A stretch of 51,249 nt of DNA, the filler included, from Dimargaris cristalligena (lineage: Eukaryota): NCBI GenBank assembly GCA_003614675.1. It is 3 parts of 3 records of this genome, joined end to end, with 100 filler letters (N's around TTAATTAATTAA, not from the genome) between each part and the next. Parts side by side here need not be neighbours in the genome. Positions count along the whole stretch, not along the records: positions 17,154 to 34,154 come from ML002823.1; 2 more parts are not named here. One strand, given 5' to 3'. Shown piece by piece: positions 618 to 45,175 of this stretch. A program made the position numbers and the translations under genes. How positions within the stretch are numbered: the first letter of the stretch is position 1; each line of letters begins with the position of its first letter. Below the pieces are notes generated by a model. It saw only the letters and a list, made by a program, of their open reading frames with translations. It ran no database searches and was not told the DNA's origin.

Positions 618-1208
618 ATGAAGTTTTCTACTACTACCATTGTCGCCGCCGTGCTTGTGCTGGCCTCCGCCATTCCCGCCCTGGCCGATTACATGCAAGA
701 ACAGCTCCAGTGCATTACAGGGAACAACTGCATTAACACGGAGGATTTCTGCATGGAGAAGTGTTTTAATATGAGCCAAACTCAATACAACGAGATGGCG
801 GTTTGCTACAATAACTGTGACGATGACAACTCGAGTACCTGCACCCAAGCCTGCGACGCCCAATTCGAGAAAATCGCCGGTTTGTCCATGAACGACCTGG
901 TTCATTTATCCAAGGCCGCCATGGAAATCTTTAGTGCGATCGAGGTGTCGTCCTCTGCCCTCCCCTCTCTGACTACCGCCAGTGCCAATGCTCCTTCATC
1001 ATCGGCCCATTCCAGCAGCTCGGTGGTGTCCAGCGTTAGTGCCAGCTCCAGCACCCATCCCTCTGCATCGAAAATGGGCAGTAGTGTCCCTTCGTCTAAC
1101 GAGTCGAGTGATAGCAGCGAAGATGACGAATCTAGTGGTGCAAAGGCTCTGGTCGTCATGCCCAGTACCCTGATTTCAGCAGCTCTTCTGACTTTTTATT
1201 TGCAGTAG
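618..1208 (+). CDS. Secreted, probably GPI-anchored, Cys-rich cell-surface protein (196 aa)
   Basis: Signal peptide MKFSTTTIVAAVLVLASAIPALA; 8-Cys domain (QCITGNNC...CMEKC...CYNNC...CTQAC); Ser-rich stalk; small residues ESSG followed by a hydrophobic C-terminal tail (LVVMPSTLISAALLTFYLQ). Confidence 0.85.
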   Translation: MKFSTTTIVAAVLVLASAIPALADYMQEQLQCITGNNCINTEDFCMEKCFNMSQTQYNEMAVCYNNCDDDNSSTCTQACDAQFEKIAGLSMNDLVHLSKAAMEIFSAIEVSSSALPSLTTASANAPSSSAHSSSSVVSSVSASSSTHPSASKMGSSVPSSNESSDSSEDDESSGAKALVVMPSTLISAALLTFYLQ

Positions 1209-6905: not shown

Positions 6906-8718
6906 TCATGATCGCTCCATATAGGGAGTGAGGTCCGACAAAGTCGGGTTTAGAAGCCGACGCCATGAGTCGCAGAATTTCGTCTGGGAAAACCGGTCAT
7001 GGGCCGAACGACGAGCCTCCTGGCGGATACTAAGGCGTTGTTCATCAGTGAGAACATCGAGGCAGTAATGGAGACATTCGGCGTACTCTTGTTCCGTGGT
7101 AGCCAAGAAACCGGAAGCTGGTTTAGAGGGGTGTGGTGAATCGGGCAGCGCGGGACTTCCTGAGGCTTTGGGGGAATCGAGGGCCTTGATCCCCGAGGGT
7201 TGTCCACTGAACAGCAGATGGGCTGGTTTGGTGGACACCACCGGGTAGGGTTGGATAATGTCCAATTTCGGACCGCCCGAGCAATGGGCAATGGAAAGCA
7301 AACCCGCTGCCTAGAAAATGCGAAGTCGACAAAGGGTACGTGCATAAGGAGGATATTCCCGTATTTCAGACAGTTAGTATAGATTAGTACTCAGTAGGAT
7401 AACATAAAGGAATACCAATTGTATAATTTCATGAACTAGCGCTATACGAGCCCAACCACCACAAACAGAGACAACAAAAGCACCTTACCATATATTCAAC
7501 GATACCGATGCCAAAGTGCTCTTCCCGCATGGTATGGATACCGATGGAGGCACGGGCCAGATGGTCCTTGAGTTCTGGGAAAGAGGCATTGATTACAAAA
7601 TGGACGGAATCGGCTATCCCGAGCTCATTGGCCAGGCGACGCAAGGCATTGATCCGATCCTCGTCCCCTTGGTTCCGACTGCTACCAAGTAGAATCAGCC
7701 GGGTATCTTCCGCTGCATCGGGATAGGTCCGACGGTAAAGGGCGAACGCCGTAATCTGCAGGACGTGGTTTTTTTCGGGGCGGAATTGGGCCACCGAGAT
7801 GATGACGCGTTGGCGGCCAGTGAGGGAGAAATCCTGGAAGGCTTGAATGTCGCAGGGTGGGCACACCGTGTGAGGGGATGGTGCCGCAGGCCAAATGGAC
7901 GCGATGTGATTGTGGGTCCAGGTGGAATTGACCATGACCACGTCCGCGTAGGAGCCCGCCCAGCCGTAGAGATGTGCAAATAGTCGGTAGTAAATCAATT
8001 TGGCGTGGGCTAACCCCCGGGTACGCAAGGAATGAAAGGTCGCGAGAACTCCACCAGGCCCAGTGCCTGCCTGCACAGGTAAGCGTTGCATCATATCCGT
8101 ACTGATCGTTGGATAGTGCACATAGGCTATTACCGGCACACCTGTAAGCCACTTGACCAAGGGGTACGTAAAGGCATAGCCCATGGTGTCGATAAACACA
8201 TCAGGGACAACTTGCTGAAGGGCCTCCCAGCCCAGACCCACGGAGCCGGCACTCTGGGCTACTAAGGTGCACCGCCGGTAATAGTCGTCGGCAACGAGGT
8301 ATCGGCGATTCAGAAATATAAACTCTATGCGGGATTCATCCAACGAAATGTCAAAGTGGGCCGCCACTCGCTCTAGGATTCCGTGCTTGGTGCACTGGGT
8401 ATCCCCGGTATACACGACGAATCGGAAATGGGGATACCGGTTCTGCATAGCCTCCAAAGCAGTCCAAAGCACCCGCTCCCCGCCGCCCCCGGCGTTACAG
8501 TATGGGTGAAAAAACCCAACCAAAGTGGGCGGTTGGGTTTCTTCGGGGTCGGGGCTGGTGTCCGTTGAAGCCGTCTCGGCGGTTAGCCGGTCGTGATAAT
8601 CGGCGGTGCAGTCACGGAGCTGGAAGCGGGCATAGCTAAAGGCCAGGTAGCCCAGTGGAATGGCACTTAGACACACATAGAGGAGCGCAATAAGAAGAGT
8701 CTGGCCGTCGACGAACAT
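6906..8718 (-). CDS. ALG11: GDP-Man:Man3GlcNAc2-PP-Dol alpha-1,2-mannosyltransferase (GT4); exons 8718-7489 and 7310-6906, ~544 aa
   Basis: N-terminal TM helix; motifs GFFHPYCNAGGGGERVLW, DTMGYAF, YVHYPTISTDM, AQFRPEKNH, EHFGIGIVEYM|AAGL..AHCSGGP; phase-0 GTAAGG...TAG intron. Confidence 0.96.
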
Positions 8719-9251: not shown

Positions 9252-11459
9252 ATGCCGCTACTTCTTACTCACCTTCGCGTGACCCGCGTTGCTCTCCAGC
9301 GGAGACTCCCTTCCACCTTATTCTCGCGAGCCTCGTATGCCACTTCGTCCGGCGCCGGCCATATTGACAGTCTCGTCGTCCCCGTCCACCGCCATGACCC
9401 TTTGGACGCCCAGTTAAGCCGCCTTTTGCCTCGGGCTCTCGTGGATCAAATCACCCAACAGAACCAGGCCTCGGGTGGAAAGGCCAAGGCTGGTGAATGC
9501 ACCGTCGTCTATCCCCACTTGGGGACTGCCAATTCCACTGGCGTGGACTCGTCCTACCAAAACGTGACCCGGGTGGCCCTGGTGGGCCTTGGCCTATCCC
9601 CCGCCAACCGGCCCCAAACCTCTGACGAGCTCGCTGAAAAGATGCGCACGGCGGTAAGTAACCAGCGCTACTATGATTGATCCGAGCAGCACCTGGTGCT
9701 CCAGCGATTATGACAGGTAACTGTCCCTTTATATGATATTTTCCGACATCGGGCAATCGCCCCTCACTTTCCATGGATCTCTCCTACCCTGACATATGAT
9801 TCCATTTTATTAATTATCACCTCATTCCTCTATTTCCATCTATCCAACCCGAAAGGTTGCCGGTGGCGTCAAGTCCCTAAAGAAACAGGGTGGTCGCCGC
9901 ATTGGTGTAATTGCCCCCCAGGAGCAGAGCCGGGCCGCGGGCGAGGCGACCGCCTTGGCCCTGTTTGACCATACCTACGCCAAATCCAAGTCGACGAAGG
10001 ATAACGGAGACCAGTCGGGAGTGGCGGTTGTACCCGTCGCCTGTACCCCAGACTCTCCACTCACCCCTTCGACCCAAGCTACGCCTGCGTTCGACCAGGG
10101 CATGATCAGTGGGGAGGCCCAGAACCTAGCCCGCCGGTGGGCTGACACCCCGGCCAACCTCATGACCCCCACTAAATTCTGCGAAGAGGTCGTGCAGCAT
10201 TTGGGTTCCTTGAATCACATCACTATCCATGTCCGCGATCAGGCGTGGGCCGAAGCCCAGAAGATGGGTCTCTTTCTGGGCGTATCCCGGGGATCCGAGG
10301 AACCGCTGCGTTTCCTCGAAATTGAATACCGGGGCAATACCCAAAAGTCGGGTGTGGACATTGGCCTGGTTGGCAAAGGTGTGACATTCGATTCGGGCGG
10401 TATCGATATTAAGCCCTGGCAGGGTATGGAGGACATGAAGGGTGATATGGGTGGGGCGGCCTGCGTCGTGGCAACCATGTACGGCCTAGCTCGTCAGGGT
10501 GTGCCCGTTAATGCGACCTGTGTCGTACCCCTGTGTGAGAATATGCCCGATGGCCGGGCCGTCAAGCCGGGTGATGTGCTGACCGCCCGCAATGGTAAAA
10601 CCGTGGAAGTCCTCAACACCGACGCAGAAGGCCGGCTCATTTTGGCCGATGCCCTTCACTACATGTGCACTACGTACGATCCTCCCCGGGTGGTGGATGT
10701 AGCCACGCTGACGGGCGCCATGATGGTCGCCCTCGGATCTACCTACACCGGCGTGTTTACCAACTCGGACGCTCAGTGGGCGGCTTTGCACCAAGCCAGT
10801 ACTGCCACCCACGAGCTTCTCTGGCGGATGCCTATGCACCCGGAGTACCGCCAAGCTATATTGGGTTCCCGTATGGCTGATTTAGCCAATATCTCGGCCG
10901 GACGTGGTGCCGGGGCCAGTACCGCGGCGATGTTCCTGAATGAGTTTGTCCAGCCCGACGCGCCCGCTTCTTCATCATCTAAGGCCGAAGAGAGTCTCGA
11001 CTCGCTGATTACCCAGGAGAACCAGGACCACCGGGTGGAGTCTCAAGGCCAACCCCGTGAATATGCTCACATTGATATGGCCGGCAGTATGGATGACAAG
11101 AGTGACGAGGGTTATCACCACAAGGGCATGACCGGTAAGTACACTACTACAATCCTTCCATTGGTCATTGTATTTTCCCAGGCGTTTGGTTTGGGATTAG
11201 AACGCGATCTTTTCTATTCACATTTATGGGTATCTGATTAGGGGCGGTTTTATGGGTATTTTATAGACTGTTAGCATAGTTGCTATAATATGTGTATCCT
11301 GATTAATGGCCTTAGGAGAGCATATCTAACACCTATTTGATACTATTGGCCCTATTATATATTTTTGCACATTGTAATGCTATAACTATCTGATATCTAT
11401 CACTGACAGGTCGACCCACTCGAGCTCTTATTGAATACATCCGTGGTCTGACGGCTTAA
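9252..11459 (+). CDS. M17 leucyl aminopeptidase with probable mitochondrial presequence; exons 9252-9653, 9856-11134, 11410-11459, ~576 aa
   Basis: Intact metal and catalytic motifs VGKGVTFDSGG, MKGDMGG, NTDAEGRL, VATLTGA; C-terminal GMTG|RPTRALIE after splicing; Arg-rich, acid-free N-terminus. Confidence 0.94.
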
Positions 11460-12731: not shown

Positions 12732-15532
<2,801 letters not shown>

Positions 15533-17053: not shown

Positions 17054-17153
17054 NNNNNNNNNNNNNNNNNNNNNNNNNNNNNNNNNNNNNNNNNNNNTTA
17101 ATTAATTAANNNNNNNNNNNNNNNNNNNNNNNNNNNNNNNNNNNNNNNNNNNN
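17054..17153. other. Artificial contig spacer (44 N + TTAATTAATTAA + 44 N)
   Basis: Exactly 100 nt with a six-frame stop linker; identical structure at 34155-34254. Confidence 0.97.
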
Positions 17154-20248: not shown

Positions 20249-21229
20249 TTACGAAGAAGTTATATTGTGGTGCTTCCGGGCTCTCTGGTATCCCTCCGCA
20301 TCCAGACAGTCAAACAGACAAGCGTATTCTTTCTTTTCGTGGGGCTTCACAATCGCCAAATACCCTCCGTAATTGGGGGCTTGCAGAATCAAGTTCGGTT
20401 CCGCGGCCAAACGCGGATTGAGCTCAAACACGGTACCGAACCCGACTCCCATATTGACGATAAACGTTGAGCTGTCATGCAGAACCACGTTGCACAGGGG
20501 GGTCGAGGATCGGAGGCTGTCCCGGGTGTTGGTGTGGTTGCGCTTCCGGCGAGCGGCCCTGGGGGTGCCGCCGTTTTTACTGGGATCGGGATCGGTGGTT
20601 AGGAAATCGATCCGTTTGACGAACGACGGGGTTTCGGAATTCTCGGTCGCGGAAGACTGGGCGTTTCGCAGGTACTCGCGGTAGAGGGTAAATATCTGGT
20701 GATCGCGGGCCAACCCCACCAGGCAGAGTTGGTTGGGCACTTGCCAAACTATCTGGGTCAACGTGAAGTCGGGTTCGTGCACCGGGGCGATGGTGGTGGT
20801 AGTGGTAGTGGACGGTGCCTCCGACGAGGCAACCTCGGGCGAGGGGTTCTCGGCGCTTCTAAAGGCCCGACAGTTGAGGTGGGGCACTGGGTTTAGAGGG
20901 AAAATGGATGGTGCAGAAAAGGGTTGGTGTAAGTCCATACGGAAACGGCTAAGTAATGGCCCCGCATGGGCCGGCTTCAACAGCAGCAGAAGTCAATCGG
21001 GAATTTGGCTAGGCTTTGCGTAAAGTCTTCCCATTCGGAGGGTTAGGCCTACAGCTGAATAAGATTACCTACCGTAATAGTAGCGGGTGAAGTAGCGATC
21101 TAGGAAAGTTGCCCCTTCAACGGGGGGAACACAGTCGGCTGGCAAGTCCGACTTGGTGCCAGTCTCCTGCCATGAATCACAGAGCGGCCGGAATTCGTCA
21201 ATAGTGGCTTGGTCGTAAAAGGTGGTCAT
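20249..21229 (-). CDS. ABITRAM/FAM206A (Simiate)-like protein; exons 21229-21073 and 20886-20249, ~264 aa
   Basis: Motifs FLDRYFTRYY, NQLCLVGLA..H, PLCNV, GTVFELNPRL...PNLI....NYGGYLAIVKP parallel the animal family as recalled (DRYFTRWY, NRICVITLA..H, PLCKI, GRLMEVNE, EGYIAVVLP); phase-1 intron. Confidence 0.82.
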
Positions 21230-25274: not shown

Positions 25275-26918
25275 ATGGCGCAATCCTTCCCTACCTTGGC
25301 CGATATCGTGGGCCGCACTCCCGTGGTCCAATTGGCCGTGGCCAACGACCTGGGCGTCCATCCCAACATCGAACTGTTGGCGAAACTGGAGTACCTTAAC
25401 CCCTTCGGTTCCCTTAGTGACCGGGTGGCCCAAAAACTGCTCCCTACTCTGCCTCCGCCCACCGTGACCACTCCTCCTCCCAGGTCAGGTACCGCTGCTA
25501 CCACCCTCGTGATTCCCTCGTCGGGCAACTTGGCCATCAGCATGGCTGCCCTGGCCGTCCCCAAGGGTTACCGCGTCACCGCCGTCATACCGGAACGCAC
25601 TTCCAAGGACCGCATTATGCTCCTCAAGGCCCTGGACGTGGAAATCGTGCGGGCCCCCGATAATGTCCTGCCCGAAGCCCCCGAAAGCTTTACGTCGTTG
25701 GCCCGTCAGATTACGGCCGAAATGCCCGGGGCGGTCCTGGTGGATTTATTCGCGGGCTCCAACGACGTGGAGAACCTGTACCACGAGTTAGCCACCGAAA
25801 TCTTGGAACAATGCCACGGTCACTTGGATGTGCTGGTCGTGGGCGTGGAGAGCGGGAGTAGCATCACTGGGCTGGCTAAACACCTGAAGCGGAAGTTGCC
25901 CGCTTTGCGGGTAGTCGGGGTGGAACCTACCCAGTCTTATATTCATGAGGGCATCGTCCAGCAGCACCAGCAGGAGCAGCCGAGTTCCGCCGGCCACTCC
26001 CAGCCCATCACCACCACCTCACGGTCGGCCCTGATCTCCCAGAACTGGAAGCTCGAGGATCTGGGCCAGCACGCTATCCCGGCGGCCCTGGATCCCGAGT
26101 GCGTAGATTTGTGGTGCCAAGTCACGGACCAGGTGGCGTATTCCATGGCCCGCCGACTGATCCGATCCGGGTTCCTGGCGGGAGTGTCCTCCGGTGCCGT
26201 TGTGGCCGCTACCCATACGTTCGCTCGTACCAGCATGCAGCCGGGGGAGCGGGCCTTGGTCCTCCTAAACGACACGGCCCGTAACTACGGCTCTACGCTA
26301 CTATCAAACGAGTGGTTGCTGAACCACGAGCTCATGGACGACGGTCTGGCCCGTAAGCTCCATTACCAGCTTATCAATAAGTACCGAGGGGCCAGCGTCG
26401 AAGACCTCCAGCTCCCCGCGGCCGTCGCTATTGCCCCCACCGATCCACTGGGTCAGGCCTTGGATATCATGGTCGAGCGGGAGTATTCGCAGCTTCCCGT
26501 GGTCTCCGCGCCCCACCGTAAACTGGTGGGCTATATTACGCTGGCGACTCTGCAATCCATGCTTGAAAACCAAAAGGTGGAACTGCACCAACCAGTCAAG
26601 GACGCCATGTACACCTTCCGACCCTTGCCATCATCACCACCCTCAGGGACCTCATCTAACCCACAGACCGCTAATGCGTCGGCGTCGGGCCGTGGGCCTG
26701 CTGCCACTACTCCAACCGCTCCCCGCCTAGCCTCAATCCGGCCCCGCTATGAATTGATTACGCCCAGCACTCCGTTGAACGAACTGGCCGAATTCTTTGA
26801 ACATCACAGTGTGGCATTTGTTACTGACTCGTCGCGTAAATTCTGCCTTGGCGTGGTGACTAAATTCGATCTCATGAAGTTCATCTCCCGTCGCCACGGA
26901 ACGGCCCCGGACTTTTAG
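25275..26918 (+). CDS. Cystathionine beta-synthase-like protein (fold-type II PLP domain + CBS/Bateman pair) with degenerate active site, 547 aa, intronless
   Basis: GRTPVV, LLAKLEYLNP.GS..DR, SSGN, VVGVEP, ARRLI..G.LAG.SSGA, D..RNY; C-terminal CBS pair (YSQLPVV...LVGYIT; GVVTKFDL). The catalytic Lys position is Ser. Confidence 0.88.
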   Translation: MAQSFPTLADIVGRTPVVQLAVANDLGVHPNIELLAKLEYLNPFGSLSDRVAQKLLPTLPPPTVTTPPPRSGTAATTLVIPSSGNLAISMAALAVPKGYRVTAVIPERTSKDRIMLLKALDVEIVRAPDNVLPEAPESFTSLARQITAEMPGAVLVDLFAGSNDVENLYHELATEILEQCHGHLDVLVVGVESGSSITGLAKHLKRKLPALRVVGVEPTQSYIHEGIVQQHQQEQPSSAGHSQPITTTSRSALISQNWKLEDLGQHAIPAALDPECVDLWCQVTDQVAYSMARRLIRSGFLAGVSSGAVVAATHTFARTSMQPGERALVLLNDTARNYGSTLLSNEWLLNHELMDDGLARKLHYQLINKYRGASVEDLQLPAAVAIAPTDPLGQALDIMVEREYSQLPVVSAPHRKLVGYITLATLQSMLENQKVELHQPVKDAMYTFRPLPSSPPSGTSSNPQTANASASGRGPAATTPTAPRLASIRPRYELITPSTPLNELAEFFEHHSVAFVTDSSRKFCLGVVTKFDLMKFISRRHGTAPDF

Positions 26919-30691: not shown

Positions 30692-32607
30692 ATGCTATAT
30701 CGGCACCCCAGCATTGTTGGTCTAGCCACGTTCTACCTCGGCTCAAACCTTCTGGTACTAACTGGCCTACCTATATCCGCAAATGCCTTAAATAATCCGG
30801 CTTGGAGCGAACCCAGCACCAGTAACACCCCGGCTCTGACGGGGTATACTGGGCCGGAGTTGGTGGAAGAGGACTCCGCTAACTCGTCCGCACCGGCCGG
30901 TCAACGGCCCAATATGAACCACCACAGCTCAGCCCCCAGCATTCCCCCTCTAGTGAATCGACTAACGACCCTGCCCACCGAGCTACTGAGCCTGATCATA
31001 AAATATTCTTATAATCGCCGCTCTCGCTCCGAGCTCTTGGGTTCCTCCAAAGTGATCGCTATGCATGCCACCAGTTATATTGAGCGTGGAATCGAGGTAG
31101 GCGTTGGTTCCGGTATTTTTAAGTTATATTGAAATTATCGGTGTTATCTTCTTGCATAGGACTAATGCGGTACCTTATTTATATATAATAACCCAGAACT
31201 TTTTGAAGTGCCTAGGCTAATACGGACTTGCCTTAATTCAGCTGGGAAACATCAGTATTTAACATCATTTGTTAACGGTCTGTATTTGATTTAGAGGGGG
31301 CATCCATATATACAGTACCCCCCGAACTAATCATTCCCCACTTTTTAATCCGATTTCGTCAGCAAACCTACTGGGGCTTGCAATATAACCTCCAAAAATA
31401 CCATAATACCGGCTCATTGTCGCACGGTGAGATTCAAGCAACATTTCACGCTTGGCACCGGCTTCTCTACCACCAAATCGCGGGTAGCCTGCTCAACCTC
31501 TTTGGCAATCAATTCAAAGTACCTATGCGCCTTTTCCAGGACTCCGTCCGTAGCCGACTTAACGTGGTGCGGCTTTCTACAGTTCGTGAGTTGCAGACTC
31601 TTATATTGAATTTCCGGGGAAATTCACTTTTAGCGATGAACGGATGGCAGTTTATTGACCCGGAGAAGCTCTCTCGGGCGACCCTAATCGATGAGTTACC
31701 CCTTTTTGCTCTAGTCGATAGCCAGGGCGATGGACAAGGTGTTTTGGAGGTGTTCAAAACCTTAACGGATCGCTCCCTCTTAAAACTAGCTTCACAGGAT
31801 TGGCCGGTACCCTCTAATTCAAAACTCGATCGAGTGGATTTATTGCGTGAGTGGGTCACTATCTTCCGGGATCCTAGCGCGGATTGGCGCGCCCCCCATG
31901 TCTACAGCCACCTGTACGGCTGTACAGCGGCCATTATGATGTCGCGCTTAGCTACCACGGGCCGAGATAAAGATTTGGTCACCTTCGTAGAGGGACTACA
32001 GGTATACTTAAATGGGCCCTGGCCGGCTCGTTTTTCGATCACGGCGTCGAAGATCCAGCGGTGGGCCCTGATTCTAGCATCCGTGACTCGTCAAGAAGAG
32101 CTGTTATTAAACTTACCCGGTGTTTCGGATGTACGAGATGCAAAACGCCTAACATCCAGTCGCCCGTTGGACGGAAAGTGCGGCTTAGCCTTTGAACTAA
32201 GGGCCCTCGAGCTATTTCATAGTGCCAACTATTTGGAAAACATTCTGAATTGCCCCCCAACCCGATTTAACGTGTTGACCGAGACGGGTAAATTGATTGG
32301 CATTTCCCACATGCTGTTTATTATCGAACAGCTTCGGTTTACTGATGATGGTGGTAGTCTTCGAATGGCAGTGGCTGTCCTCCGACCAGAGTTTGAAGAT
32401 GCCAATTTAACCGGTTCAGCTGATATAAGCCCTTGGCCATACTACAAAAACCTCTGGGGACTTGGTTCGCAATTATCGGATCCTAAGCTATACGACCAGA
32501 TTCAGCGTATCATTGCCGTGGCCTATGGCCAACATGGCGGCGAGCATCGCTTTGTGCAAGCATATGATATTTTGAAAGATTCCCGCGAAGACTTTTCCAA
32601 TCGCTAG
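30692..32607 (+). CDS. Putative secreted protein with an F-box-like motif; exons 30692-31096 and 31363-32607, ~549 aa
   Basis: Hydrophobic N-terminus ending ...LPISANA; LTTLPTELLSLIIKYS; a phase-0 GTAGGC...CAG intron with ACTAAT branch site joins the two ORFs; upstream TATAAAT near 30458. Confidence 0.7.
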
Positions 32608-34154: not shown

Positions 34155-34254
34155 NNNNNNNNNNNNNNNNNNNNNNNNNNNNNNNNNNNNNNNNNNNNTT
34201 AATTAATTAANNNNNNNNNNNNNNNNNNNNNNNNNNNNNNNNNNNNNNNNNNNN
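34155..34254. other. Artificial contig spacer (44 N + TTAATTAATTAA + 44 N)
   Basis: Same 100-nt structure as 17054-17153. Confidence 0.97.
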
Positions 34255-38199: not shown

Positions 38200-41100
38200 T
38201 TACTGCTGTAATTCATGGAATGCATTTTCAATACATTGCTTAATATCGCGGTAGCTCACAATCAGGCACGACTGCTCATCCCGAGAGGTTAACATCACCC
38301 GTTCCGATACCCCGGCGTCCAACTTATTAAGGCACGTCAGCACATGGGCCATGTCCACCACTGGCCGGCCGTGTTCGTCGACTTGATGAAACACGAAATC
38401 GCGGAAGAGTTTAATCAGGTACCGGTCGCCGGTTTCCGACCAGTCGGCTTCTCGGTTGAACTCGGGCCGTTCGTTGATAAACCCGAATTTAGTCAGAAGG
38501 CGCACCAGTCGGGCATTCTCCAGTTCACGGCTCAGCTCGGCTTGGAGAAGGTCATTCTGGCGTTGTTGGGCGTTGAGCTCGTCGAAGATGCGCGGCCCAA
38601 CAATCCGCAGTAGGTCTTCCACATTCCGACCGGGCCCTAGACGGCCCAGGAGGTACATGATGACCTGTTTGAAACTGGCCGAGTAGGTGCGTTGAATGAA
38701 GGCCAGTGCCTCTTTGGTGTGGGTTAATGCGTGAAGATTACCGCACGCCAGGATAATCAAGATCCGGCCGATGCAGGACAGGTCTTCCCTCTGGAATTGC
38801 GTGACGTTGCCTGGCATATCGTAGGTGACCAAATCCAGGATACCGGCCCGGTCGAGACTTAGGCGGTGCTTATCAATCATGAGAATATGCTCCAGCGTGA
38901 TGGTCCGAAAAGCCAGGCCCATCGCGTGGACCGTCGACAAAGCCGACGCTAGCTGGATAACGTAGCTCCACAGAGTAGCCTCGGGAATAGACTGGTTATG
39001 CTGAACCGGCCCAACCGCACCCGAAGGGGCCATCCCGCCTAGCGGACTAGTGCTATGCGATGGTGAGGCGTAAGTCGGTTTAGGCGACATGGGTGGTCCA
39101 CTATTCACAGGCGCGAAAAGGGGGACCCCCCCGATGGTGGAACTCTGCCCAAAGTAAAAGTCCCTCATGGTGACAGCCAGGGGATAGTAATCGTAGACTA
39201 GGACCAGAGAGTTGTCGTCAAACACCGTGGTGGTAAACGCCTCGTAGAGCGACGCGATGTTAGGGTGTTGGATTTTCCGCCAGGTTTCAACCACCGACAT
39301 AGCATCTTCATTCATTAGGCGGAACCCTTCAATGCGGCGTAAAGCGTAGATTAGACCATCACGGCTGGACTGGGCCTTATAAACAACTGTCACGTATCCG
39401 ATCGCGCCCCGGGTACCTCGATCGGTATCCTCCAGCGGCATCAGAGAATGGTACTGATTGACCTCATTGGGAATACTGGGGTCAGTCGCTAGTATTGTCG
39501 TCATCGAGTGTGAATCAATATATATAAATATATATATGGGGGGAAACCAAATAAGACAGTAAATATACGAATTGCTGGTGTAGGAAGCAAACTAAGAATG
39601 CTGCAGCGTGTAATCTATTATGAATAGCTCCGCATGTTGCGGTGGATGCACAGACCAGCGTGGTGGAATCTCACTACTCTCGGCGATGGGCAGCCAACTT
39701 ACATGTATAATTCAGACGGGCAAAATTCTTTTCCGTCAATTCGTGCCTCAGGGTATCTGAGATGAAAAAATGGCCAATGTGTTTCTGCTGTGGGGGTAAA
39801 TTCGCAACATTGGACGGAGGGCCGCTATACATATGGTACTGCAGGGGCTCATGGGGGAGGCGGGCCATTTGGATCATGTGCTGACCTGCGCTCACCGGGG
39901 TGCGGGCGTAGGTGTAGGCATGGGAATCGGGGCCGTGAAATGGCGGGGCAGTGGGGTGACCCGCGTCTTCGTATCCCAAGTCGTCACCAGGGATCACGTC
40001 ATCGGGGTGTTGCGAGGGGTCCTGATTGAGAGAGAGGCAATATAGAATATGGCCCAGAAGTTAGGGTTAGTTTTGGCGAGCAGGTAGGGGGCGAAGTGAG
40101 GAGCCGACATTCGCTATTCGAGAGTGGATAGCGACTGCACCATTAGGCGTGTATCATTGGCTAAACTCATGAACTGCAAAGTACCTGCAACCATATACTA
40201 TGCCAAACTGCACAGCATCACTTACCACCTCATCCACGTTCATGGCCGAAAATTGGTCATTGATTTGATGCGGGGTATGGCTATTGTTGGGGGAGAACAC
40301 ATCTCCTCTAAAGGTATTAATAGAACGGGGTACCAATAACAATGGTATGTAGCCATTAGGCAAAGTAGTGATGATGGACAAGGGCATCCCACAGCGGAAG
40401 ATATCGGCAGGTACGGTGGGTGGCCATTAAGACGCAGTGCTACATGAAGTAAACTTACGACAGGCCGGATGCTGGTCGGTTATCTGGTTTAATAAGTGCA
40501 TGTACATTGTAAAACAGGGTAGTATCGGCGAATGTTCAGTGCGTGCGGACCATACAAGCAAGTCATTCACAATTAGAGTTATAGGGACATGGTAACTATG
40601 GGGAGGCCGGTGGATATCTAGTATTTTACCTAAGTGAAAAGCCGGGGTGGTGGCATGCTGCTCAGAGAAAGGCGCTTTCTTGTATTTGCGCGGCGTGAAC
40701 ACGGGACTACTAGGGTCGGGCAATTTACCCTTTCTGATATCCGACAAGAAAATGGTAGAAGGGGGGAGGAAAATATGTACCCAACTAGGTTAGGAAAAGC
40801 ATTTAAAACAGTAGGCTTAACGGACAAAGGAAAATGGAGAGATATATGCCGGATTACCACAGCTGGACTTACCGTTCCGGACTTTTCGAGAGCAAGGGGT
40901 CGCTGGGTTTCTCGGGCTGACATGACGGATGCAGTTACGGGAAATAGATAAGGTTGCGATGACATAATATTGGAATGAAAAGTTAGCAATGGGAGCAAAG
41001 CTAGTTAAGGCGGGGGAATATATCGGGGTACTGGACCCTGCGGTATATCCGAACCATCGGTAGTAGTGAGTCGTGGGGATTATCCAAGTACCACTATTAT

Positions 41101-44662: not shown

Positions 44663-45175
44663 ATGAAGCTTTTCGCCGTTGGCCTTCTGGCCCTTGCTGC
44701 ACCCACCGCATTCGCCGCCAGCCTTGGTGCCGTCTCTGGTACCCAATTCCCTGTCGACATGGCCTCCCCCCGCTTGACCTGTACTAACGCCACACCCCTG
44801 GCCCCAGAAATCCAAGCCATCATGAAGAAAACCAATTTGGACTGCCGGATGATCCATACCGCCATGCATAACTTTAAATGCGAGCGCTACCCTGCGGCCG
44901 GACCGTGTGCCAATACCGAGGAGTGCGCTAGTCGCTGGGCTGAGTTTACCGACTCCCTACGTGGTACTCCAGCTTCCGTACCCTACATAATCGAAAATTA
45001 TGAGTTGGACCGGCCCCGGAATCGCCGTCTTTTCCGTCGAATGCCCGAGGATCCCACTTGTTGTCCGAGCGAGAGCTGCATGGAGAACTTCTGCGGGTTC
45101 CCATGCAATTGTATGTCCTGCTTCTTTGGAGACTTTCTCTGCGGGACTTTGAAGCACTGCTTCGGCTTCAACTAA
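44663..45175 (+). CDS. Small secreted Cys-rich protein, probable prepropeptide (170 aa, 14 Cys)
   Basis: Signal peptide MKLFAVGLLALAAPTAFA; ACCATG start context; polybasic RPRNRRLFRR before a 44-aa tail with 9 Cys. Confidence 0.85.
   Translation: MKLFAVGLLALAAPTAFAASLGAVSGTQFPVDMASPRLTCTNATPLAPEIQAIMKKTNLDCRMIHTAMHNFKCERYPAAGPCANTEECASRWAEFTDSLRGTPASVPYIIENYELDRPRNRRLFRRMPEDPTCCPSESCMENFCGFPCNCMSCFFGDFLCGTLKHCFGFN

Follow-up and report, generated by a model that had tools for sequence, protein, structure and literature searches.

A probable pseudoenzyme paralogue of cystathionine beta-synthase in Dimargaris cristalligena, with orthologues across early-diverging fungi

Introduction

Eukaryotic cystathionine beta-synthase (CBS) combines a catalytic core of the PALP family with a Bateman module, i.e. 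a pair of CBS repeats, as in the human enzyme (PDB 4L27, 4COO and 8S5H) and in yeast Cys4 (6C2H). A CBS study assigns roles to K119, N149, S349, the loop at positions 256-260, the entrance loops and E201 (PMC7277093; human numbering is used here and below for reference positions). Here, we describe a gene of Dimargaris cristalligena (GCA_003614675.1), located at 25275-26918 (+) in a stretch of 51,249 nucleotides joined from parts of three records (hereafter, the window), that encodes a CBS paralogue with a damaged pocket for pyridoxal 5'-phosphate (PLP) and that is very probably a pseudoenzyme.

Dead paralogues of PLP enzymes are known to act as regulators or subunits, as exemplified by the antizyme inhibitor and the LCB1 protein of serine palmitoyltransferase. 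These proteins are of fold types III and I, respectively, and, unlike the paralogue described here, have no fused ligand sensor. Cysteine synthases (CysK/CysM and MCY1-like proteins) share the fold of the paralogue but have no Bateman module, keep the active Lys and give weaker matches. A precedent within the CBS family is the N-terminal module of Caenorhabditis elegans CBS-1, for which the original report describes replacement of the Lys by Glu and of G256 by Asn, no binding of PLP, failure of the E62K substitution to restore PLP binding, and a role in keeping the nematode enzyme soluble (PMC3316156). According to this 2012 paper, no other fold-type II PLP protein without a PLP site was known at the time (PMC3316156). 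The nematode module and the Dimargaris protein have in common a CBS core in which the Lys and G256 are replaced and which is maintained by selection. However, the nematode module is fused to an active core and lacks a Bateman domain, while the fungal paralogue is a separate gene for a single core with a Bateman module, and most of its orthologues still have the Lys.

Results

The open reading frame (ORF) at 25275-26918 (+) is a single exon that encodes 547 amino acids without internal stop codons. Based on translation and Pfam, a fold-type II (PALP) core at residues 10-332 (25302-26270; E 2e-47), for which a CBS-core-like fold is predicted, is followed by two CBS repeats that form a Bateman module at residues 370-540 (26382-26894); the protein has no N-terminal heme extension. 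Its best solved relatives are the human CBS chains (E 9e-61). At the site of the Schiff-base Lys (K119), the protein has Ser48, with the codon AGT (25416-25418) two base changes away from AAA and AAG. The ORF is covered by contigs of 4/4 sequencing runs, three of which possibly derive from the same DNA, and contig X5, from a second study, contains the whole ORF in one piece, retains the AGT codon and has two differences within the ORF, both synonymous. Thus, Ser48 is real and not an assembly error. A preliminary description, made from the sequence alone, had reported NPFGSLSDR in place of NxGGSVKDR, together with GVESGSSITG, DLFAGSN, LEDLG and SSGNLA at other motifs, in an intact 547-residue frame with a CBS pair, and all of these readings are borne out by the translation.

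For this gene, the NCBI model (P0002; 495 amino acids) omits residues 220-236 and 445-479 (window positions 25920-25984 and about 26607-26711). Because orthologues retain S221, M445 and F448 within these stretches, the unspliced reading is favored, and the gaps in P0002 are probably spurious introns placed over low-complexity insertions. The CBS2 repeat contains an insertion rich in Ser, Thr and Pro (residues 457-488; 26643-26738), which is modeled with a predicted local distance difference test (pLDDT) score under 50 and varies in length among orthologues. No active-site residue is affected by the choice between the two models.

Besides the Lys, several elements of the active site depart from the canonical state. 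The PLP-phosphate loop G256-T257-G258-G259-T260 reads E-S-G-S-S (residues 192-196; 25848-25862), and T150, Q222 and G305, which we take to be substrate residues, are replaced by Leu86 in the substrate loop (residues 82-86; 25518-25532), Leu158 (25746-25748) and Asp262 (26058-26060), respectively. By contrast, two contacts of the PLP ring, N149 (N85) and S349 (Ser305, which contacts the pyridine; 26187-26189), are present, as are the equivalents of D376, R336 and, in the entrance loop at residues 126-138 (human L191-202; 25650-25688), E201 (E137). The phosphate loop had been described as lost; this is overstated, as the hydroxyls of T257 and T260 are conservatively kept by Ser, and N149 and S349 remain.

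The preliminary description had suggested that a canonical CBS be sought elsewhere in the genome, and one was found intact: a four-exon gene on another contig (G000:C172:32168-34249; L007, minus strand) encodes a CBS with every motif intact, and two cysteine-synthase-like genes also have intact motifs. The gene in the window is, therefore, a paralogue and not the working CBS. The canonical protein has a Cys/His-rich N-terminal extension that is probably the animal-type heme-binding region, which is absent from yeast Cys4.

Using protein searches and name look-ups, with fused forms of up to 958 amino acids within range, we identified orthologues of the paralogue in Dimargaritales, Kickxellales, Harpellales, Zoopagales, Entomophthorales, Basidiobolus, Mucorales, Umbelopsidales, Mortierellales, Glomeromycota, several chytrid orders, Gonapodya, Paraphysoderma and the aphelid Amoeboaphelidium; a search of the ESM Atlas returned only the same Mucoromycota clusters. 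In a FastTree phylogeny of 373 rows (384 minus 11 short ones), 114 rows, some of them partial and one the duplicate model P0002, form a single clade with support 1.0, and in an IQ-TREE phylogeny of 76 rows the clade has a support of 100 in the Shimodaira-Hasegawa-like approximate likelihood ratio test. A tree of the Bateman module only (72 rows) also recovers the clade (100/100) and, based on few columns, joins it to fungal canonical CBS plus four other rows (95/73), i.e. it groups the clade by descent with eukaryotic CBS rather than with cysteine synthases. In whole-protein trees, the clade lies outside canonical eukaryotic CBS, a placement in which long branches may mislead. The nematode tandem protein P0256 branches elsewhere, which argues for an independent origin of the fungal paralogue. 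Paralogue and canonical CBS occur together in each of at least 37 species paired by source name, a lower bound since the canonical rows were taken from 120 of 8000 matches listed. Among the matches listed (the best 120 of 213; 150, of which 20 were checked by name; and 107) in searches that were word-limited or unnamed, none of the named proteins in the clade was from Dikarya, so that absence from Dikarya is not proven.

Several Mucorales and Basidiobolus have, among the matches listed, two canonical CBS entries besides the paralogue. Two members of the clade, P0082 from Calcarisporiella and P0081 from Parasitella, carry unrelated N-terminal domains (PF00825 and PF03947, respectively) and are probably merged gene models. 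Outside fungi, the bacterial proteins P0315, P0302 and P0382 have a CBS core and a Bateman module without the Schiff-base Lys, and in P0315 and P0302 G256 is likewise replaced by Glu. Because these Lys-less proteins branch with bacterial CBS, apart from the fungal clade, the shared G256E lesion suggests convergence. We considered an operon pairing of a Lys-less with an active CBS in bacteria, and found none within the 4 kb flanks of P0315 (L010:4001-5353, on G001:C35), the one of 80 loci that was returned; the canonical CBS of this genome is on another contig.

Next to canonical rows, the fungal clade is set apart by its pocket rather than by its Lys (counts are of clade rows with a residue at the position in a rough alignment). 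G256 is replaced by Glu or Asp in 102/112 rows, G305 by Asp in 99/106 and Q222 by Glu in 94/107 (Leu in Dimargaris), while Gly, Gly and Gln are invariant in 119/119 canonical rows; T150 is Leu or Phe in 101/104. These changes are fixed in the clade and do not occur in the 113-119 canonical rows. By contrast, the Lys is kept in 90/103 rows (113/113 canonical), N149 in 92/105, S349 in 101/113, D376 in 111/113, E201 in 105/109 and R336 in 112/114, and position 257 is Thr or Ser in 104/112. A Cys..His heme pattern is found in the N-terminus of 2/93 paralogues versus 61/99 canonical proteins. The alignment thus indicates that the clade-defining lesions are the changes of G256, G305, Q222 and T150, and not the loss of the Lys.

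Substitutes for the Lys are Ser or Thr in the five Dimargaritales species seen (5/5), Glu or Asn in two Entomophthorales, and His, Leu, Asp, Phe and Asn in chytrids. The loss maps to six changes on a 38-row tree, of which at least two are forced by strongly supported branches. Because the pocket lesions are nearly fixed while most members keep the Lys, the order of events read from the alignment is that plugging of the pocket preceded loss of the Lys, which occurred repeatedly; the idea of a concerted loss of Lys and pocket that defines a Lys-less clade is not supported by these data. In several chytrid members, the entire G305 loop is deleted while the Bateman module is kept, and in one chytrid member, P0401, Pfam does not recognize the core any longer. 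In a search by alignment for a compensating Lys, none of the 17 lysines was specific to Lys-less members; K37, K118 and K205 are common to canonical CBS, and the position of K259 is Lys in 14/37 canonical rows. As CBS without the Lys cannot form the internal aldimine, the Dimargaris paralogue is almost certainly dead, and, by analogy with the nematode module, we are confident that it neither binds PLP nor produces cystathionine.

Selection has acted differently on the two parts of the protein, as judged from protein-level rates, which were used in place of the ratio of nonsynonymous to synonymous substitution rates. Over 666 species pairs, identity of the core is 0.479 in the paralogue versus 0.798 in canonical CBS, while that of the Bateman module is 0.589 versus 0.574. 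Constraint within the clade is strongest in the Bateman module, and, together with the spread of orthologues over several fungal phyla, this agrees with the proposal of a selected, non-catalytic CBS paralogue. Conservation of ligand site S2 is 0.84 in the paralogue and 0.81 in canonical CBS. In addition, 27 Bateman positions, including R402, S405, K416 and R540, and 20 core replacements are fixed in the paralogue only. Within its core, pocket positions (0.63) and entrance loops (0.61) are better conserved than other positions (0.46), and the value for the entrance loops is matched by 1% of 2000 random sets.

In human CBS, AdoMet (S-adenosylmethionine, SAM) is bound by F443, D444, Q445 and D538, with D444 contacting the methionyl nitrogen, and the D444A substitution increases the half-maximal activation concentration of AdoMet about tenfold (PMC4276868). 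The first wall of S2 in the Dimargaris paralogue, Y404-S405-Q406 (26484-26492), corresponds to F443-D444-Q445 and is preceded by R402 (37/37). Thus, three of the four AdoMet residues (F/Y443, Q445 and D538) are kept, but D444 is Ser in 109/113 clade rows, a departure from the human-type SAM-activated site. The second wall (residues 526-532; 26850-26870) fits GhxS/TxhD, described in another study as the adenosyl-binding motif of CBS pairs (PMC4133348), with the aromatic Y404 opposite. The equivalents of T535 and D538 are kept in 110/110 and 109/110 clade rows, respectively, and the Gly of the motif is present in 32/37 paralogues, while 36/37 fungal canonical CBS have His or Ala there. Net charge of the Bateman module is equal in the two groups. 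Based on these residues, the Bateman module is probably a sensor of an adenosyl ligand. Because of D444S and the fixed Arg and Lys around the site, this ligand is more likely phosphorylated (AMP, ADP or ATP) or otherwise different from SAM, as judged from local residues only. Of the SAM or adenylate sensor envisaged in the preliminary description, the adenosyl motif supports the general idea and D444S weakens the SAM option, while the sensing role itself is inferred.

The predicted model of the paralogue has a pLDDT of 86.5 and a predicted template modeling score of 0.75, and its core superimposes on CBS cores with a root-mean-square deviation of 1.9-2.1 Å over 310-322 residues (Z about 42), in agreement with Foldseek. 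A complex of paralogue residues 5-537 with residues 36-502 of the canonical CBS was predicted with a score of 0.84 in three runs, while the best of three controls scored 0.00; contacts agree by at least 76%, the partner has a pLDDT of 74, and the usual core-core face is used. The pass mark for complexes was reached by 51/78 solved versus 2/108 mismatched microbial pairs and by 39/65 versus 2/126 eukaryotic pairs. One half of the predicted face is kept in the paralogue (the region of K118, L120, G121, R293, I296, G299, L343 and D345). A heteromer of CBS and paralogue is a plausible outcome of this modeling, though not decisively favored.

Discussion

Based on these data, we tentatively propose that the paralogue is a pseudoenzyme that senses an adenosyl ligand and acts through the canonical CBS. 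In this model, CBS would have been duplicated before aphelids, chytrids and zygomycete fungi diverged. The alignment indicates that the ancestor of the paralogue lost the heme extension and that acidic or bulky residues (G256E, G305D, Q222E and T150L) came to fill the pocket; catalysis would then have been gone, and the Schiff-base Lys repeatedly dropped, with Ser in its place in Dimargaris. By the nematode precedent, the paralogue would bind no PLP and form no cystathionine. Selection would act on the S2 site and on the entrance loops on which it docks, such that binding of an adenosyl ligand would switch the shape of the protein. Finally, and of this we are least sure, the paralogue may replace one subunit of the CBS dimer and tune the canonical enzyme, which would alter flux from homocysteine to cysteine and H2S.

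Several observations weigh against this proposal. PLP binding is possible outside the Lys-less lineages, as the Lys, N149, S349 and a hydroxyl group at position 257 are retained by most members, and members with the Lys may have residual PLP binding or new chemistry. Close cousins of true partners pass the complex test 10/12 times; because CBS homodimers have been solved, the heterodimer pass may be a memory of these structures and shows likeness, not binding. No confident contacts between core and Bateman module were listed in the predicted heterodimer. Moreover, the 39 interface positions are conserved at 0.49 versus 0.46 in the rest of the paralogue core, a value reached by 19% of random sets, while the same interface in canonical CBS stands at 0.89 versus 0.75, and positions at which the canonical interface has, for example, F71 and M340 vary among paralogues. 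The earlier suggestion of a regulatory subunit of a true CBS fits the predicted heterodimer, which may reflect solved homodimers, and the interface is not specially conserved; the role remains inferred.

In a somewhat unlikely alternative, the paralogue is a stand-alone sensor or scaffold. It would then be a homodimer or monomer without PLP, respond to the adenosyl ligand and act on a partner other than CBS. The acidic pocket could possibly bind a basic peptide, an amine or a metal; the cysteine synthase CysK is known to bind the tails of partners. The conserved pocket with its new fixed residues, the dimer face that is kept no better than the remaining core, and a Bateman module with fixed residues of its own all agree with such a function. 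However, the acidic pocket is not universal, being partly deleted in chytrid members, the predicted heterodimer passes, and canonical CBS is present in every species paired.

A narrower version of the proposal that the paralogue acts through CBS, and an unlikely one in this full form, is a dead subunit in a CBS heterodimer that senses the adenylate energy charge and not SAM, goes back to the base of the fungi and was lost in Dikarya. Improbable in our view is a purely structural role, as a CBS subunit or a helper in its folding, without signaling. The dead module at the N-terminus of CBS-1 in the nematode offers a precedent for such a helper (PMC3316156), and a core-core heterodimer is predicted, but canonical CBS homodimerizes unaided, and it would remain unexplained why the ligand site and not the core is most constrained. 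We also give little credence to a neofunctionalized PLP enzyme, in which members with the Lys would use an amine-rich substrate and Lys-less ones would be secondarily dead or hold PLP loosely. The retention of the Lys, N149, S349 and the hydroxyl at 257, and the existence of members that depart from the canonical loop at G256 only, fit this idea; the repeated loss of the Lys in intact genes and a core that evolves far faster than that of active CBS do not, and in the nematode module with the Lys restored, the G256 substitution alone blocked PLP (PMC3316156). A sequencing error or a decaying pseudogene can be dismissed, given the two base changes needed, the agreement of the second study, Ser or Thr at the Lys site in five Dimargaritales species, a third-position GC content of 0.72 in both the paralogue and the canonical CBS exon, and a 114-row clade over several phyla.

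The pseudo-CBS proteins are a conserved family of early-diverging fungi that has apparently gone undescribed so far: a literature search, mostly without subscription papers, returned no published description of a pseudo-CBS paralogue. Two CBS genes of Mucor circinelloides have reportedly been studied, and this may concern the two canonical entries of Mucorales. Members of the family are still annotated as active CBS or as "PLP-dependent enzyme". As a free-standing family that spans phyla, they offer a case of a pseudoenzyme that appears to have arisen in stages, with the pocket plugged and the Lys then lost repeatedly, and screens based on the Lys would miss such pseudoenzymes. Metabolic models of early-diverging fungi would need one CBS taken out. 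If the paralogue does regulate CBS, the metabolism of homocysteine, cysteine and H2S would be under a new, additional level of control in Mucorales, Mortierellales, arbuscular mycorrhizal fungi and chytrids, and the paralogue would provide a natural test of how a Bateman module communicates with a catalytic core; loss in Dikarya would then explain why work based on yeast never met a pseudo-CBS.

Genomic neighborhood

The immediate neighbors of the paralogue ORF have no Pfam family, and genes farther off are housekeeping genes, so that the neighborhood is uninformative. The latter encode a PAN3 pseudokinase (38200-39504, -), MCM3 (13343-15532, +), an M17 aminopeptidase (10102-11241, +) and ALG11 (7429-8718, -), all of which are on contigs other than that of the paralogue, as the window contains runs of N at 17054-17153 and 34155-34254. 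ORFs without a Pfam family lie at 31525-32607 (+), 20249-20938 (-), 44663-45175 (+) and 618-1208 (+), and the products of the last two appear to be secreted and rich in cysteine.
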